DNA of 55,680 nt from Neophaeotheca triangularis. Lineage: Eukaryota. The stretch covers positions 1 through 55,680 of the forward strand of contig BAAIJX010000087.1 in NCBI GenBank assembly GCA_054600435.1, in the 5' to 3' direction. Below the pieces are notes generated by a model, which made no database searches, was not told where the DNA came from, and was given only the letters and a program-made list of their open reading frames with translations. Shown here piece by piece: positions 3,477 through 26,284 of the stretch (position 1 is the first letter of the stretch; every line of letters starts with the position of its first letter). The position numbers and the translations under genes were made by a program.

Positions 3477-6400
3477 TCACTGACTGCGCAAATACTGCAC
3501 CAACTCTCCAACCCTGGCCTTGGTCTCAGCATTCAGCTGGTCCTCGGGTGGACCCATGACGGCCTCGAAAACGGGCAGCAGCCTTTGCGTCAAGCCCATG
3601 ACAACACGGTTTTGTTGCTGGTACAGGGAGACGAGCATGTCGAAAACCGGCTCGTTCTCACGGAAGTCCTCCTTCAGTGGGAGCAAGCCGACCAGCTGTG
3701 GCAGGACTTGCTCAAGAGGCACATTGTCGGGAGACTTCTTGATGAGACGCGCAAGGCAGCCGGCCGCGTTGTCGAGCAGTCTCGCTTCCGGAGATGCGGC
3801 GGCGGTGGAAGCTTGGAGCAGGGGCTCGAGAGCACTGAGTATGGTCGGGTAAGCCGAGAGCACCTCTTTGGCATCGGTGGAATGAAGGCAGAGCAGGCCG
3901 ATGCCGAAAGCGGCGTTGGATTTGCTCTCGGGGTCTTCATCGCCGAGGCGCTTTTGGAAGACGCGCATGAATCGCGAGGTAAAGGGCGTGCAGGCCGAGC
4001 CCATGGCTTCAATGCAGTCGGCCATGGCGCCGATGGTGGCGCTGCGCTCGTAGCGCTCTTGGCTGGAGGCGTACTTCATGACGGGGGATTCGAAGATTTT
4101 CCACAGCTCGCCGAACTGTGGGCCCAGTGCGGTAGCGAGGGCGGCAATCACTTCGAGAGCCGTCTCGATGACTAGCCAGTCGTACTCGGAGGACTCGCTG
4201 TCGAGTTCTTCAAATTCCTCTAGGTCGTCGGGGTCCTTTTGGCAGGTGTGCTGCTTTTGCAGAATGAGGACCAGGTGGGCAGTCATTTGCTCCAGAGGGG
4301 TCGAAGTGGCGGAGATTTGGGGGGCGAGGATGGCTGGGCCGCAGAGTTTGAGGGTAGCGGCAATGTTGCGGTTGATTTCCGTGACGGTGCCCCTGTAATT
4401 GGCTGTCAGTAAAACGATCTCGACTTGTGTATAAGCGTCAAAGATGAAATGATAAGTAGGTAGTCAGAAACAGCCTCTATGTTTTCGCAGCATTTGCCGT
4501 AGCATCTGAGTGAGCTGGGTATAACAAAAGTGTTCTCATCACGTAGGGTAATAGTGGAAGGGGAAAAGAAAAGTCGAGACATACCTGTCAACCTCTTCCT
4601 CCCAAAGGGCGAGAGTACCCTTCATGACCACATCACCAAGCTTGGCAAGGTCATCAGTCGGCTGAACCTTCAGAGGCAGGCCAGGCTGCCACTTTTGCAT
4701 GCCGCTGTCCTCAGCCAGGCCCCACAGGCAAGCGTACGCCCTCCACAATGTTCCGATTGCAGACTTCCTTACACCTTCAAACGAGTGTTCGAGCAGCGGT
4801 GCGGTAATCTCGATCGTCTTCTGCATGTACGGGAGGTACTTGGATTTGGTGTGGGTGAGGATGTCGCCCACAACTTCGACGGCAATCTCTTTCTCCATAG
4901 AGACGGCGGTGACGGCACCCAAGTCGTCCCAGTCGTCCTCGTCTTCGTCCTCACCTTGCTCCATCAGGGCGTTGACGAGGGCGTCGTCGTCTTGGTCGTC
5001 CTTGACGAGGTCTTGCTTATCGACACCACCGTCAGGGTTGGCAACCTTGAACTTGCGGCCAGCGACAGTGACTTCTTGGCCAACCAGGTCGGAAGCCTCA
5101 GCCCCGAGGGAAACTTCCTGGTCAGTCTCGTCTTGCTCGAGGCAGGCAACCAGAGCAGAGACTGCACCTTGAAGGAAAGGAGCAAATTCTTCCTCGTAAA
5201 CCCTCGCAAGCGTGGACCACAAGATGTAGCTCGTCTCCTTCAAGCGGGGGTGGTCAAGGTGGAGAGCTTCCTCGCTTGACCTCATCAAGGGCTGCACGTA
5301 CTGCTGGAACATCTCCCCACCAACAGCCGAAGCAATCTTGCCCATGGAGTCGGTGACCATGCCGCGAAGCTCAAGCTCATCCTGAGAGTCCTTGATGTTG
5401 ATGTACTGGCCGAGCTCTTGCATGGTCTTGTCAAAGTAAGGCTTGAAAGACTCCTCAGACGCGCTGGCAATGCTACCGACAGCCGACACGGCAGCCATCT
5501 GCACCTTGTGGTCAGGGTGACCAAACAGCATGCTGAAGCGTGGGACAAGCTCCTGCACGTACTGGGACGCGTCCTTCGGGTCCAAACCCTCAATGAGAGA
5601 GTCGACCGCCATGCAGCTAGCCTTGACAATGTTGGTGTTCTCGTCTTGCTCTTGCGATCCAGCTTGGGCATTCCTCATACCCTGCAAGGCGAGGTCGAAG
5701 TTCTTGACAAGAGCCGGCAGCAGGCGAGCGTGTTCCTTGCCCATGTCCTCGGCCAGGTCGTCGGCAAGCCTGGCAACACCATTGAGCGCAGCACTTCGGA
5801 CGCTGACGCTGGGGTCCTGGAGGAGGTGAAGCACAAGCGGCAGGATTTCTTGCAGCTGGGTAGCGATGAAATCGGGGGCGCCCTCAACACACATGCCGAG
5901 GGCGAGTATACCAGCTCGGCGGTAATCGGGGTTCTCGTTCTGAACATAAGGACCAATGGCTTTGAGAAGGGGTACAGCAACTTGGCTGGGCGGCAGCGAC
6001 TCGGAAAGAATGTCCAACAGACCCAAAGCAGAGCGTGCTGGAGAAATATCTTCATCCTCACTGCTCATGTCCCCAAGCTCAGTAGCGATTTGCAAACTCA
6101 TCTTGGTCAATTGCTCGCCAACCTTCAAGCTCTGCACCTTGAGCTTCCTGTAGCGAACGCTCTGCATGAGGAAGCTAAGTGCTTGGTTGCGAACGTCCTC
6201 GTCGATTTCGGTGTTGGCAGACACTTGGATAAAGTACTGCAGCAAGTCACCAAAGTGAACGTTGAGGAACGCACTCTCGTAGCTCAACAGCTTGTTGAAG
6301 ACCTCAAACGCCAGCATGCTGTGCTCCTCGTCACCGTCGTCGATAGTACCCTGCAAAGCCTTGACCATGTGAGGGATGGTGGCCTGAAAGCTCTTCAAGC

Positions 6401-7001
6401 TCTTGGGGTCTTCCTCAGTGTCGAGGACCATGGCCAACTCGGACAGCGCCAGCATAGTGTTGACGCGGACCTCGACAGACTCGGGATCTTGGATAGTACG
6501 GTTGAAGAGGGTCAACATTTGGGTCATATTCTCCTGGAACAAGTCGGGCATGGTCTCGATCAGGGTGAAGATGATGTAGACGGCCACCTCACGGTGTTTG
6601 GCATCGTTACTGGTGGCGGCCTGCTGGAGGACGCCGGGCAAGTCTGTCCACTCACCCTCAGGGAGATCGAGCTTTGCAATGGCAGCAATAACGCGGGCTT
6701 TGGAATGCCTGGCCAATTGCTTCTCCTCGCTGGTGGTGCTTTGCAAGAGTTGCTGCCTCAGCTGAGGCTTCTGGTCGGCGGGAACCGAAATCCAGTGCTT
6801 GTCGACGAGCTTGCGCGCTTCGACAGCAGAGAGTTGCCTGAGACCCGGCTCTTCTTGCGATGTGAGGATATGGAGGAGGGCAATGAGGGATTGCGGGGAG
6901 GAATAGTAGTTTTTGTTCAGCGAAGAGGTCGCCGCCTTGACTTTTTGGGTGTCGGGTTCAAGGAGGGCCCGGAGGAGCGAGACAAACTCTTGCTCGTCCA
7001 T
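3477..7001 (-). CDS. KAP123: Importin beta-4 (Kap123/importin-4) HEAT-repeat karyopherin. Exons 7001-4585, 4392-3477
   Basis: IBN_N-like start (LRQLSAVEARKLV), HEAT repeats, an acidic loop (EDEDEDDWDDL) followed by AVTAVSMEKEIA, and C-terminal DNAAGC / LLPLKEDFRENEP. The intron 4584-4393 (GTATGT...TACTGAC...CAG) restores the frame VDR|GTVTEINRN. Confidence 0.93.
4460..4547 (-). ncRNA. Intronic box C/D snoRNA with two guides: snR71/SNORD29-like at D' and SNORD95-like at D
   Basis: Minus strand: box C GTGATGA (4542-4536), guide ACCCAGCTCAC (4520-4510), box D' CAGA (4508-4505), guide TAGAGGCTGTT (4479-4469), box D CTGA (4467-4464). Both 11-nt guides are complementary to conserved LSU rRNA sequences as I recall them (GUGAGCUGGGU and AACAGCCUCUA). 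End coordinates are approximate. Confidence 0.9.
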
Positions 7002-19800: not shown

Positions 19801-22296
19801 AAAAAGGTTCAGGACTTCTTGCAAAGAGCGCCGAGCTCCCTGTGGGAGCTTGCCGTCCGCAGCATACAAGATGGCATCGCTGTTTGGCTTGCCGATGCCG
19901 GAGTCAAGACAGGGCCGAATCACAACTACGCTGGTGTTGCGGATGCCGTAAGTCATCCTTGTGATGAGATTATTGTGCAACTGGATGCTAACAAATCACA
20001 GATCGAAGCTCTTTACACCGAAGTTCTTACCGGACTTCTCAACTGCTCCGAAGCAAACCTGACACTAGCACAGACAATGGAGCGTTTGTTGGTGGCAGGC
20101 CTGTCGAGCCCTCACAGAAGCATCGTCAGTGCGACCATTGTCTACTGGAACCAGACCTTTGGCACGTTAGAGGATCTTGAGTATCCGCCTCAGCTTGAAG
20201 CCGTCCTGCGCGCCCGTGGGATGGAGGCCGAGATCAGCCTGCCCGGCTTGTCAGATGAGCCTGGGCACGTCGGACCTGCGAGCCTGCCGCCTTTCTTCGA
20301 GTCTACCCTCGAGGAGCCGAAAGGCCTCAAACCACCGAAGCTTACAGCCGCTCCGCCGAGGGCTACGCAAAGCGCGTACTTCACAGCTGGAAAATCACCA
20401 CGACCTCAAAGCTCTGGTGTCGCATCCGCTGCTCCGTCCGAAGCCAATCGCCAACCAGGATCCGCCTCAGCCAAGACAAAACTTAGACACGAGGACTCGC
20501 AGATCGACTTTGCGCCCATTGAGTCTACGCCAATGCTTCATACGGAAGAATCTCAGCATCTGACCGAGCACCAACAAGAGGTTATGATGCAGCAACGTCA
20601 AGATGCTCTGATATTCCCAGACCTCTCTTCAAGTCCGATGGCCCATTCGACTGCCTTGCCGAAGCAGGTACCAAGACGCCTTGATTTCTCCTCCAGCGCA
20701 GTTGACAAGACACACGGAAGCCACCAACAGCGCGAGCAAACTCCGACTGGGACACCAGATGCTGCTTCTCACATGAACGACTACATGGGATCTTCGCCCA
20801 CGCCGAAGGCTTCTGAGAAGGCAGCTCCCGGAGTACAGGCAACGGAGGAGCAGCCCGCCGAGGAGGAAGTGGAAGCCCCACAAGACCCGCCTTCGTCGCC
20901 GCCTAGGGAAGACGGAGGATTGCCCACGTTCGAGCACGCCCAACACCAGGCAGATGAAGGCGACACCACATTGTCAGTGACATGGGAGCCCACCGTTGCT
21001 AGCACGGCCCTTCAGCCCGGCCAGCCGGCCAAGAACCAAGAGGCTGAGGAGGAAGTCACGCTGCAGGACGGCGAGCTTCCCTCCGACTGCGGACTCCCCA
21101 ACGAACAACTGCACCAAGAGGAGACTATTGCGCAAGAACGTATGCAGGGCGACGAGCACGAACGGCCTGATCAAGCCCCCGCAGCTACTGGAGCAAACGT
21201 CGGCAACATTCAGGGCGACCACGATGTAGATGCTACGGAATACCCCTCAAATCCTTCATCACCGGAGAAAGAACACGAGGCTCCAGGCGAGAACCGCTCA
21301 GAACGCAGTTTCGCCGAGTCTACAGAGGAGGACGATGTCAGCAGGGTCGAGAACTCTTTTTCTGCTCCTCAGCCAGACATGGAGAACGTTTCTCCGGCTA
21401 CAAGTCGACGGTCGAGGCGAACGAACGGCAAGCGAAAGCGAGAAAGCGCAAGCACAACCCCCAGAAAGAGGAAGGATGTCTCACCTTACAAGAAACCCTT
21501 CACCTACCTGTCCAGCTTTTTCCGCAAAAGTCAACAAGCCGAGGACGACGACGACATTGGTGATGAGATCGTTGTCGCCAGCAGCCAGCCTTCTGAGTCG
21601 CCCGCCAGCAAACGAGAAGCCGCGTCGCCTTCCAAAGAAGTGGATGTTCCAGGTACTGTAGATGAAGAGCCATCACAAGAGTTCGCCAGCTCGCAACAAG
21701 ACGCCAGCGCCTCGATGCCTCCACCGAAGCGCGGACGCGGTCGACCGCGCAAATCAGCAACACCCACCAGTCAGCCAAGCCAATCTGCAGATGGCAAGCT
21801 CAAACGCACAGCGTCCGCCCTCAGCAACTCCACCACCCATTCTTGCGACGAGAGCGAGACCAGTTTCGTGAAGGATACTCCCGCGCCCGTGCCCCGGAAG
21901 ATGCGCAAGCGCGAAGGCTCGGGCAGCAAGCTCGTGCGCGAGTCGCAAGAAGCGGAAGCCGAAGCCTCACAAAACCCTCCGTCCCGTTCAGGTAGCAGGA
22001 GCTCCCAGCGACGATCCCCCACAGTCATGGTGCCAAGGCGGGCATCTGCCATATCTCAAAATTCTCGTGTCGACGAGGACGACGCGCCGGGTACTCCCGC
22101 GAGACATGCCTCCGCCGAACAGCTTGCTGAGCGCGCTATTGCTACCCCTAGGAGTATTTTGGCACGGCTAAGGGGCGTGTTGGCAGATTGCGGGAAGATG
22201 ATTTTGGGTTCACAAGAGGAGAGGGAGTTTGATGATGCACTTTTCGAGTTGAGGAGGGAGGTGCATGATGCTGCCCGGAGAGGGAGGGAGACTTGA
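16870..22296 (+). CDS. RIF1: Rap1-interacting factor 1 (telomere length and replication timing regulator). Exons 16870-19947, 20002-22296
   Basis: N-terminal RPPTPPR and PP1-docking motifs KKVDF (RVxF) and KSILK (SILK), then a long HEAT-like Rif1_N region (RLDAYLAINGALKAY) and a disordered C-terminus with an AT-hook (KRGRGRPRK). There is a 54-nt in-frame intron at 19948-20001 (GTAAGT...GCTAAC...CAG). Confidence 0.88.
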   Translation: MGPPSALEKLPERPPTPPRDTTKDVEDALDFLEDSNEIDRAIKSKATAPAPVSATGSHTPARASPVVSLQEPAPTNSAATKKVDFSPWTEVYRDPPHLGQHQTPTRRGIKPLKSILKLSTLPPPLTPDGAEKGLSYFSPKEPGSFEKMLKSVLQQLASTSVSARLDAYLAINGALKAYDNLPEPKAFEQNMDQIMRFVMRDVVWKDESGKLDTNIVTQSLKLACAIACDEKHSKAINDEFRAFLVDKAIVAMEGTDVSKAIVKTQMFLVAQQRFSASVWTPSRAERCITALNTIDSKVNGNNVIATRLVIYQRLLSQARQVMLNRIRDWLDHIFHAMLSSVKEVRVRAIETGRKAALDLGTHYAASKSLSDMMSTQVEEGQSYCDYLSLRLQQMIDDKEMNIYVPQIWAATILFFRNKKVPLEFWPGFKTWLKIMSKCLNRKEERFMRYSMLGWNKLIYVVQPDKSTIENMSGLIATPTAQMLQNSCRDLKSKKLRPIILEGYYNLLHYALRPGLEFESLDKAWDRYVEPALLGLAKLGSAGRSSVCRILHGLLIANDGVWNSDAALKDTMPENTGDGDMSAENALFRPDELPMLPVKWVRTRLAKIFKIVEPCLQSSFWKPVDACADTDAAWQALMQAISEAGRQEVKTSQELKEAIALLVKMFRSLWTSPRPKPDEADDSDFVRRVGGLFDTTVDALGASVFTEDILARTRQDDIEAAPTPSHRSSKHHVSLQSPLVFLLGLLLQPTFKPCEQYYEIVYKLLAKMCGSKTSEAAKVELLRRCWQSVSKTYGDKVPPTMLSAIWQQVARCSTYVLRPVAEGPVATHGLHGLKSEIDNLLTIINDGLKYTESDMAALDPFLALYTATAALAQNEAGNGALVYAVAEPFAKTFRTKGTAVVQTSTMQVAQRVLETAPWVPSKQALEQGRRALLGVSLPPNKAPYNPFENVFAMITDLLVRTYSGSLEVRALHEVVNFVKKVQDFLQRAPSSLWELAVRSIQDGIAVWLADAGVKTGPNHNYAGVADAVSHPCDEIIVQLDANKSQIEALYTEVLTGLLNCSEANLTLAQTMERLLVAGLSSPHRSIVSATIVYWNQTFGTLEDLEYPPQLEAVLRARGMEAEISLPGLSDEPGHVGPASLPPFFESTLEEPKGLKPPKLTAAPPRATQSAYFTAGKSPRPQSSGVASAAPSEANRQPGSASAKTKLRHEDSQIDFAPIESTPMLHTEESQHLTEHQQEVMMQQRQDALIFPDLSSSPMAHSTALPKQVPRRLDFSSSAVDKTHGSHQQREQTPTGTPDAASHMNDYMGSSPTPKASEKAAPGVQATEEQPAEEEVEAPQDPPSSPPREDGGLPTFEHAQHQADEGDTTLSVTWEPTVASTALQPGQPAKNQEAEEEVTLQDGELPSDCGLPNEQLHQEETIAQERMQGDEHERPDQAPAATGANVGNIQGDHDVDATEYPSNPSSPEKEHEAPGENRSERSFAESTEEDDVSRVENSFSAPQPDMENVSPATSRRSRRTNGKRKRESASTTPRKRKDVSPYKKPFTYLSSFFRKSQQAEDDDDIGDEIVVASSQPSESPASKREAASPSKEVDVPGTVDEEPSQEFASSQQDASASMPPPKRGRGRPRKSATPTSQPSQSADGKLKRTASALSNSTTHSCDESETSFVKDTPAPVPRKMRKREGSGSKLVRESQEAEAEASQNPPSRSGSRSSQRRSPTVMVPRRASAISQNSRVDEDDAPGTPARHASAEQLAERAIATPRSILARLRGVLADCGKMILGSQEEREFDDALFELRREVHDAARRGRET

Positions 22297-25285: not shown

Positions 25286-26284
25286 TTAATTCCTATACTC
25301 CCTATGCTCTCTCCTCCGCCCCCTCCGCCTCGAATCCTCCTCACTACTCCCTTCACTATATCCCCTATCTCTGGCTCGCGAACTATACCCTTTCCCCCCT
25401 GACGACCCAGAACCCTCATACCTCTTCTCCCGACTCCTGCCGACCTCATGCCCGCCCAAACCGCCTAGTATCGCGCCGCCTATCGTGCCCAGCCCGGGGA
25501 AAATCGCATCCCCGATTAGAGCGCCACCGCCCGCTCCGAGGAAAGTGTTGACGCCACTACTCTTTTTGCGCTCGGGCTGTTGTTGTTGGTGTTGTTGCTG
25601 CTGCTGCGAGCGGTGGGAGTGGTGGCGGCGGTTTCGCGGGCGGGAGCGAGATCGGGATCGGGATCGTGAAGGGCTGTATGTTCGGTTGTGAGCGGGGTCG
25701 GCGAAGGTGACTTGGCTTTGGGAGGGGCGGTAGAGGGGTTGTGATGCCCGGCGGGAGCTGGGTTTGAGGTGGGGCGGTCTGAGGTTGGTGTTGCCTGGGT
25801 ATTGTTGTTGTTGTTGTTGATGGGCTTGTTGTTGCTGTTGCTGTTCGGCGGCTTGTTGGGCGGCGTAGCGTTGGACGTAGTCCTGGGGTGGGGGTTGAGA
25901 GGCGTAGCGCTGGGGCTGGGTTGGCAGGGGTTGTTTTTCTGGGGGGTATTGCCAGGCTTGTTGTTGGGAGTGTTGCTGGGCATTCACTTCCGGGTACTGC
26001 CAGCCGTGCTGCTGCTGCTGCTGTTGTTGTGGTTGTTGCTGTGGATTCGGTCGGTACGGATCATTGCTGTAGCCAGGTTGAGTAGGACGATCCTGGGACG
26101 GCCTCGGCGGCTGCGAGTGTGGTCTCTCCTCGCCGTAAGAGCTGTATGGTGGCGGAGCATCAGATAGCGGGTAAGGGAGGAGGTTTGCTGCTGTCTGTTG
26201 CTGTTGTGGAAGATGATGCTGCTGCTGCTGCTGCGGAGGCGGCGGCGGATGGCTGCTGCCAAAGTAGTACTCATGCGCGGCCAT
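25286..26284 (-). CDS. Q/P-rich low-complexity protein with a C-terminal glycine-zipper motif
   Basis: 332-aa ATG ORF with poly-Q tracts, a PPPY motif, an SR-repeat, and NTFLGAGGGALIGDAIFPGLGTIGGAILGGLGGHE (GxxxG repeats). Confidence 0.8.
   Translation of the reverse strand: MAAHEYYFGSSHPPPPPQQQQQHHLPQQQQTAANLLPYPLSDAPPPYSSYGEERPHSQPPRPSQDRPTQPGYSNDPYRPNPQQQPQQQQQQQHGWQYPEVNAQQHSQQQAWQYPPEKQPLPTQPQRYASQPPPQDYVQRYAAQQAAEQQQQQQAHQQQQQQYPGNTNLRPPHLKPSSRRASQPLYRPSQSQVTFADPAHNRTYSPSRSRSRSRSRPRNRRHHSHRSQQQQQHQQQQPERKKSSGVNTFLGAGGGALIGDAIFPGLGTIGGAILGGLGGHEVGRSREKRYEGSGSSGGKGYSSRARDRGYSEGSSEEDSRRRGRRREHREYRN

Follow-up and report, generated by a model that had tools for sequence, protein, structure and literature searches.

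The KAP123 gene of the fungus Neophaeotheca triangularis is interrupted by an intron of 192 nt, and the question raised by this locus is whether a small RNA carried within it could serve two methylation sites of the large-subunit (LSU) rRNA and, if so, from where its second guide was acquired. A preliminary description, made from the sequence alone, had proposed a double-guide box C/D snoRNA at this position, within what is referred to here as the window, i.e. the whole stretch of 55,680 nucleotides that was analysed (contig BAAIJX010000087.1, positions 1 to 55,680 of the forward strand). The conclusion reached here, to which a probability of about 0.8 is attached, is that an RNA freed from the spliced KAP123 intron would form a C/D RNP and guide methylation both at A2910, from box D', and at A1853, from box D.

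The host gene and its intron

When the GT..AG intron running from 4584 to 4393 is taken out, a single open frame of 1110 amino acids results, which confirms the 192 nt intron proposed earlier. The top PDB match of the encoded protein is Kap123 (E 5.4e-101), followed by importin-4 (E 7.2e-53), and the protein contains IBN_N and HEAT repeats; the host had thus been correctly named. Kap123 is an importer of ribosomal proteins. The 5' splice site and box C are separated by 43 nt, and box D and the 3' splice site by 71 nt, a geometry that is typical of the family. With regard to intron length, 8 of the 23 intron-like candidates in the window were 54 - 68 nt long, the scan being a crude one that itself overlooked the 192 nt intron.

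Table 1. Features of the KAP123 gene and of the snoRNA in its intron (window coordinates).
Feature	Position	Strand	Remarks
KAP123 (importin-4) exon 1, host gene	4585..7001	-	PDB match, domains, open spliced frame
KAP123 intron, 192 nt, phase 2, snoRNA-bearing	4393..4584	-	GT..AG ends
KAP123 exon 2	3477..4392	-	spliced frame, domains
Branch-point motif ACTGAC	4405..4410	-	18 nt before intron end
Box C/D snoRNA, snR71/N. crassa CD27 orthologue with second (U95-site) guide	4460..4547, ends approximate	-	
Box C GTGATGA	4536..4542	-	TGATGA invariant in 9/9 aligned copies, but part of the search pattern
5' strand of short internal stem	4523..4526	-	pairs with 4480-4483
D' guide, 11 nt	4510..4520	-	predicted to direct 2'-O-methylation of A2910 in the organism's LSU rRNA (site of snR71/U29; Am2904 in N. 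crassa)
Spacer, one base, between D' guide and D' box	4509	-	
Box D' CAGA	4505..4508	-	same box in N. crassa CD27
3-bp hairpin, D' to C'	4495..4504	-	27/27 cells paired in 9 copies; nearly invariant, hence weak support
Probable degenerate box C' ATGCTGCGA	4485..4493	-	placed from conservation
D guide, 11 nt (12 with G.U)	4469..4479	-	predicted to direct 2'-O-methylation of A1853 in the organism's LSU rRNA (site of U95/snoR33; Am1845 in N. crassa)
Spacer, one base, between D guide and box D	4468	-	
Box D CTGA	4464..4467	-	

Anatomy of the snoRNA

The core of the RNA, from box C to box D, occupies positions 4464-4542 of the minus strand and carries the RUGAUGA near the 5' end and the CUGA near the 3' end by which box C/D snoRNAs are recognised. 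Boxes, spacers and guides could all be located (Table 1), and the two 11 nt elements previously described, each one nucleotide away from its D or D' box, are present as proposed. Within the internal C'/D' motif the CAGA of box D' is conserved and the putative box C' is degenerate, its placement following from conservation; insertions in C' have been reported in snR71 orthologues (PMC3116282). The short internal stem has a C-G pair in six of nine aligned copies and U-A in the other three, and among 60 distinct snoRNAs the combination CG/CG occurs in 38 and TG/CA in two, but this covariation was matched by 12 of 500 shuffles and is weak, the copies being related. The change from C-G to U-A is seen in N. 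triangularis and two relatives, the paralogue considered below still having C-G. A terminal stem is absent and the fold of the RNA is no better than that of its shuffles (z -0.08). Elsewhere in the window a candidate with C to D spacing was noted at 19961, but it resembles coding sequence.

The two guides and their predicted targets

Both 11 nt guides pair perfectly with the LSU rRNA encoded by the genome itself, a comparison that the preliminary description had suggested, and the D+5 bases are A2910 for the D' guide (-23.2 kcal/mol) and A1853 for the D guide (-20.8 kcal/mol). If a box C/D guide is defined by a complement to rRNA of 10 - 21 nt directly upstream of D or D', then this RNA contains two. 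When the stretch separating box C from box D was dinucleotide-shuffled 100,000 times, a D guide arose 143 times, a D' guide 305 times and the two together not once. Amongst six distinct orthologues, 11 of 11 D guide columns are invariant, compared with 13 of 34 spacer columns (Fisher p = 2.5e-4, a significance that is overstated in that the six related orthologues are treated as independent); the D guide lay outside the pattern used to search for these sequences, box C and the D' guide inside it.

Both target assignments of the preliminary description agree with the work of Liu et al. (2009, PMC2780460) on Neurospora crassa, in which the D' guide of CD27, with snR71 and U29 as homologues, is assigned to 26S-Am2904, and CD28 is assigned to Am1845 from D' and to Am1859 from D. 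As had been supposed, the two jobs are therefore split between separate RNAs in that species. The homologues given for 26S-Am1845 are snoR33 and U95, and none is given for S. cerevisiae or S. pombe. For the snR71 site the preliminary description used the yeast number 2946, and the table in PMC3511168 has Am2943 for snR71 and Am4493 for U29. The literature search found no methylation data from filamentous fungi for sites of the A1853 or A2910 type. It should be noted that in an alternative register of the D' guide, as in CD27, a C lying two positions 3' of A2910 could also be targeted.

The D guide (window 4468-4479) also has a second partner of 12 bp in the organism's own LSU rRNA, at ~1406-1417 around G1410 (-19.3 kcal/mol). 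This duplex is almost as stable as that at A1853, and has a G.U pair at the D+5 position. Such a pair at D+5 disfavours methylation.

On the preferred interpretation the snoRNA would be made as part of the KAP123 transcript, freed from the intron after splicing and processed to a length of ~85 - 90 nt, and would assemble with Snu13, Nop56, Nop58 and Nop1, all as expected from the known pathway. The ancient D' guide would direct 2'-O-methylation of LSU A2910, whilst the last ~12 bases before box D would have become a guide for LSU A1853 near the base of the Capnodiales s.l. and would have been kept by selection since.

Relationship to known snoRNA families

A search of the whole window against Rfam at gathering thresholds gave no match, an outcome that left the matches to SNORD95 (17.3 bits against a cut-off of 55, E 0.33, and to the 3' end only) and snR71 (16 bits where 60 are required, E 8.4) below threshold, together with a third that was to an unrelated lncRNA. 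By score the RNA consequently belongs neither to RF00479, the snR71 model, nor to RF00189, the SNORD95 model, despite having the D guide for the U95 adenosine, and its orthology with snR71 is based on guide, scaffold and position and not on RF00479. It has the D' guide for the equivalent of N. crassa Am2904 that marks the snR71/CD27/U29 lineage, and, when compared by eye, the 16 nt of the D' guide together with the CAGA box are identical to those of N. crassa CD27, the counterpart of yeast snR71 and of U29 (RF00479, clan CL00051). With CD27 it further shares the LSU target and an intronic location, CD27 having been cloned as cDNA from an intronic gene (PMC2780460), and the 5' part and the C' region are similar when compared by eye; unlike the KAP123 snoRNA, CD27 does not have the U95-type D guide. 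On this comparison the RNA in the window is identified as an orthologue of snR71/CD27 that carries an additional guide.

The second guide has its own counterpart in SNORD95/snoR33 (RF00189), in which the same guide sequence stands directly before box D and the same LSU adenosine is the predicted target. The match to SNORD95 is, however, limited to positions 39-64 of the 68 in the model, the remaining scaffold being that of snR71, so that the KAP123 snoRNA is predicted to have a U95-like function at the A1853 site and yet lies outside the SNORD95 family. With CD28 of N. crassa it has the site Am1845 in common (PMC2780460), but it does not show the CD28 arrangement of an Am1845 guide at D' with an Am1859 guide at D.

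Distribution among fungi

A scan of metagenome contigs with box C and the D' guide as its pattern yielded 89 matches at 86 loci. KAP123 was recognisable on both sides of 48 of the 89 matches, with the intron at residue 806, and on one side of a further two; 29 had a D box but no KAP123 match, and the remaining 10 had no D box and were mostly chance or incomplete matches. Hence the inspection of KAP123 introns in other fungi that had been recommended revealed a snR71-type RNA in the same intron at 50 of the 86 loci, as would be required of positional orthologues, and KAP123 is an old host common to many fungi. Nine of the 50 loci in KAP123, with 5 distinct RNAs between them, have the U95-type D guide, and none of the other loci does, L017 being left out of the assessment because its D box was miscalled. 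These nine are the loci closest to the KAP123 of N. triangularis, at 68 - 76% identity compared with no more than 66% for the rest (three short loci left out), and the named KAP123 relatives at 72 - 77% identity are members of the Capnodiales s.l., the order-level grouping used in PMC11362667. One exon of the genome matches, without any difference, a protein labelled Neophaeotheca triangularis.

Phylogenetic analysis gave a consistent result. In a tree of 41 of the 79 rows, a split with an SH-aLRT of 100 separates six loci that have the U95 guide, together with 13 named proteins of the Capnodiales, from the other 22 rows, which include 13 U95-negative loci. In a FastTree analysis covering 78 rows, no negative locus descends from the ancestor shared by all 10 positive ones. 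Unspliced gene calls provide a further source of information in the form of peptides that read through the intron: of those with Capnodiales-type KAP123, 12 more encode the U95 guide and three have near matches, most other KAP123 read-through peptides ending before the guide is reached. Two Capnodiales peptides, P0079 (basal) and P0056 (nested), seem from a reading of the peptides to be without it. From the tree, the positive loci and the read-through peptides it is inferred that the U95-type guide was gained near the base of the Capnodiales s.l., where it is widespread but not universal.

Two other observations were made in the course of the survey. The D side of eight copies (L018, L025, L027, L044, L054, L055, L073 and L077) has a 9 - 10 nt complement to LSU ~1872-1881; in these non-Capnodiales copies it is two bases off the snR62/U34 site and is broken in related copies. 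A Capnodiales-like KAP123 (P0031) and a Capnodiales-like GPI10 (P0211) are labelled as oak in a public source, which is probably a case of fungal contamination. In the genome of N. triangularis a second, weaker SSU rRNA match (L012; G000:C114:3153-4274, 267 bits) is probably mitochondrial.

Origin and role of the second guide

Compared with the ancestral scaffold the KAP123 snoRNA differs only in the last 12 or so bases, a pattern that fits either short-patch recombination or point changes. A second guide for A1853 was not found by pattern searches of the genome's 136 contigs with exact 8 - 11-mers. One such search gave three matches, and the two outside KAP123 lack box C; another gave 29, of which 20 were inspected in full and none was snoRNA-like; and of 14 exact copies of the D guide 11-mer in the genome, only that in the KAP123 intron is followed by a D-like box. 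Nor did pattern searches of the genome reveal a D' guide resembling that of CD28. There is, though, an intronic box C/D snoRNA without an Rfam match (L119:1437-1653; G000:C22 near 346988, plus strand), the D' guide of which predicts methylation of the organism's own LSU A1867, the equivalent of N. crassa Am1859 and hence of the box D site of CD28, and which has no U95 element. Relative to CD28 (PMC2780460), the Am1845 guide would thus have come to lie at D of the snR71 orthologue and the Am1859 guide at D' of L119, with both scaffold and box changed, and since the KAP123 snoRNA has the one guide and L119 the other, both CD28 functions appear to have been retained on other scaffolds with the boxes swapped.

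Because the KAP123 snoRNA is the only candidate guide for A1853 found in the genome, the change is most likely to represent a hand-over of the site, or target switch, in which the KAP123 snoRNA took over from a CD28-like RNA, and not the acquisition of a redundant copy. One possible source of the guide is suggested by the 3' end of N. crassa CD24, which resembles that of the KAP123 snoRNA (PMC2780460), but a CD24/snR77 orthologue was not found in the N. triangularis genome, one of the searches being a search in which the controls too were silent. U5, considered as a target of the D guide on account of the CD24-like 3' end, was discarded as there was no match in the genome's own U5.

The alternative that survives best is that both sites are methylated but A1853 redundantly so, another snoRNA having escaped detection and no hand-over having taken place. 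This is compatible with methylation at both sites, and redundancy is common among fungal guides (PMC5824354); moreover the searches, which required exact 8 - 11-mers in an assembly of 136 contigs, are blind to wobble variants and to assembly gaps. It is nevertheless considered unlikely, given that three pattern searches produced no second A1853 guide, that the remaining guide of CD28 occurs on an RNA free of the U95 element, and that the strict conservation of the D guide fits a sole guide.

Quite unlikely, too, is the suggestion that the RNA is a single-guide snR71 orthologue in which the D-side element makes a docking or chaperone contact with the pre-rRNA, at 1853 and/or 1410, that does not lead to methylation. 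There are precedents for extra base-pairing elements in the position of a second guide, snR71 being one of those RNAs for which flanking complementarity has been described (PMC3116282), the D element has two nearly equal LSU partners, and several non-Capnodiales copies have a 9 - 10 nt match near LSU 1876 at the same position, such that the D side may have touched this region earlier. Against this, the duplex adjoins a perfect box D and places D+5 exactly on a site that is predicted in Neurospora and has guides in plants and humans; the D guide aligns base for base with that of SNORD95; and the extra elements described in PMC3116282 pair beside the RNA's own target and mostly do not adjoin the D box, whereas the target sites of the KAP123 snoRNA are more than 1000 nt apart. 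Finally, a chance complement or neutral relic on the D side of an ordinary snR71, for which it might be said that the D 11-mer match arose in some shuffles and that the GPI10 paralogue in the same genome lost this guide, is highly improbable and largely refuted by the conservation test, as the guide meets a known site in register and is invariant in six distinct orthologues whose host proteins are just 68 - 76% identical to the N. triangularis KAP123.

A paralogue in GPI10

The preliminary description did not include a paralogue that lies in an intron of another gene (L003:1460-1651 on G000:C46, snoRNA at 25419-25502, plus strand). This RNA, the only paralogue in the genome, is 87% identical to the KAP123 snoRNA, and its host, a PF03901 mannosyltransferase, is referred to here as GPI10 because its relatives are labelled GPI mannosyltransferase 3. 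The splice is confirmed by the annotated protein. The D' guide is intact, but the D guide region differs at 6 of its 13 positions, compared with 4 of the 62 positions outside it (p = 1.2e-3), and its duplex with the 1853 site has weakened to -7.9 kcal/mol. The possibility of a new target for this region was rejected, the best being 7 - 8 bp at -7 to -8 kcal/mol, which points to decay.

Amongst the 120 matches listed for the GPI10 junction, all 41 gene calls known from metagenomes only read through it with normal spacing and no long insert; the query ended at the junction, and so did not select against intron-bearing relatives, and some of the calls may derive from transcripts. As all 41 of these calls run through the junction, the GPI10 intron is, from the sequence evidence, a lineage-specific gain. 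It is flanked on both sides by CAG, representing either a tandem acceptor or a short direct repeat. The GPI10 and KAP123 introns are each 192 nt long, in phase 2 and of matching geometry, but this is weakened as evidence of copying by the constraint on intron geometry across the snR71 family. The stretch from branch point to AG is identical at 15 of 18 positions, the best of 62 comparisons, but once splice and branch signals are removed the resemblance of the flanks does not exceed that expected by chance, with z values of 0.7 and 0.9 and rank 3 among 63. An apparent homology of the 3' flank (p = 0.0002) was set aside, because the shuffle had broken the branch motif and the effect was gone when the signals were removed. 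The genome holds two matches to the element, and not the many near-identical copies that would identify an introner-like element.

It may be the case, though the idea is put forward tentatively and is somewhat doubtful, that the KAP123 intron acted as a donor copied whole into unrelated protein-coding genes, giving rise to the new intron of GPI10, in which the second guide was then lost. Relocating snoRNA-bearing introns and recombined double-guide snoRNAs have been described in fungi (Luo et al. 2013, PMC3596301), and intron transposition has been recorded in Mycosphaerella (PMC3443670). The GPI10 case resembles these in that an intron carrying a snoRNA occupies a new position not homologous to the old one, with CAG as a short direct repeat where intron and exon meet. 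It differs in that the presumed donor intron is still in place, as expected of copying and not of excision, and in that the gene with the new intron codes for a protein and lacks this intron in relatives.

Amongst the metagenome loci, snR71-type RNAs were also seen in intron-like settings outside KAP123 (L020, L062, L066, L082, L039 and L098), the first four of these representing intronic copies in other fungi. The best flank match of L020 is a KAP123 intron carrying a 99% identical RNA, and L082 combines a Capnodiales-type inner loop with an ancestral D region. Tandem or dispersed snoRNA copies without an evident intron are present at L040:617-1230, L051:1501-1994 and L075, with three copies ~290 nt apart in the case of L040.

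Significance of the rearrangement

The kind of change described here has precedents. Canzler et al. (2018, PMC5824354) reported that 14 of 68 fungal C/D families combine a conserved guide with a lineage-specific second target, the families being "predominantly single guide", and their survey, in which the Capnodiales were covered, included target switches with shifts from D to D'; double guides arising through recombination have likewise been described in fungi (CD5, Liu et al. 2009; snR78/72, Luo et al. 2013). The KAP123 snoRNA resembles the lineage-specific D targets of Canzler et al. in having a conserved D' guide and a clade-restricted D guide. A search of the main text of that paper gave no mention of snR71, CD27 or U95; its supplementary Table S14 may list the pair. 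A literature search that covered few subscription papers found none in which the U29/U95 combination of guides, KAP123 as its host or the copy in GPI10 is named. The novelty claimed for the double guide therefore stands in part: the second guide is there, but the RNA is an ordinary snR71/CD27 orthologue, the KAP123 host is widespread and the trait is Capnodiales-wide and of a type already described. In the KAP123 snoRNA a known family is thus seen in its Capnodiales form, the rearrangement behind it is of a kind already recognised, and no new mechanism is involved.

What the locus does reveal is a clade-wide rewiring of the predicted guides for rRNA methylation in the Capnodiales s.l. The U95 site, which is guided in plants, humans and Neurospora but has no yeast guide listed, would have been retained in this group by means of a different RNA and a different box, and its being kept although both have changed suggests that selection acts on the modification and not on the gene. 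As the Rfam scores fall below the thresholds, standard annotation omits the snoRNA. The GPI10 paralogue, with one guide left, offers a built-in control, since it retains the D' guide and has lost the D guide: deletion of the KAP123 intron should abolish Am1853 and spare Am2910. If the GPI10 intron was indeed copied from that of KAP123, it would constitute a further instance in which the donor of a gained intron is known, and whole-intron copying would then have left, in one genome, a traceable donor and recipient as well as a natural pair of single- and double-guide RNAs.
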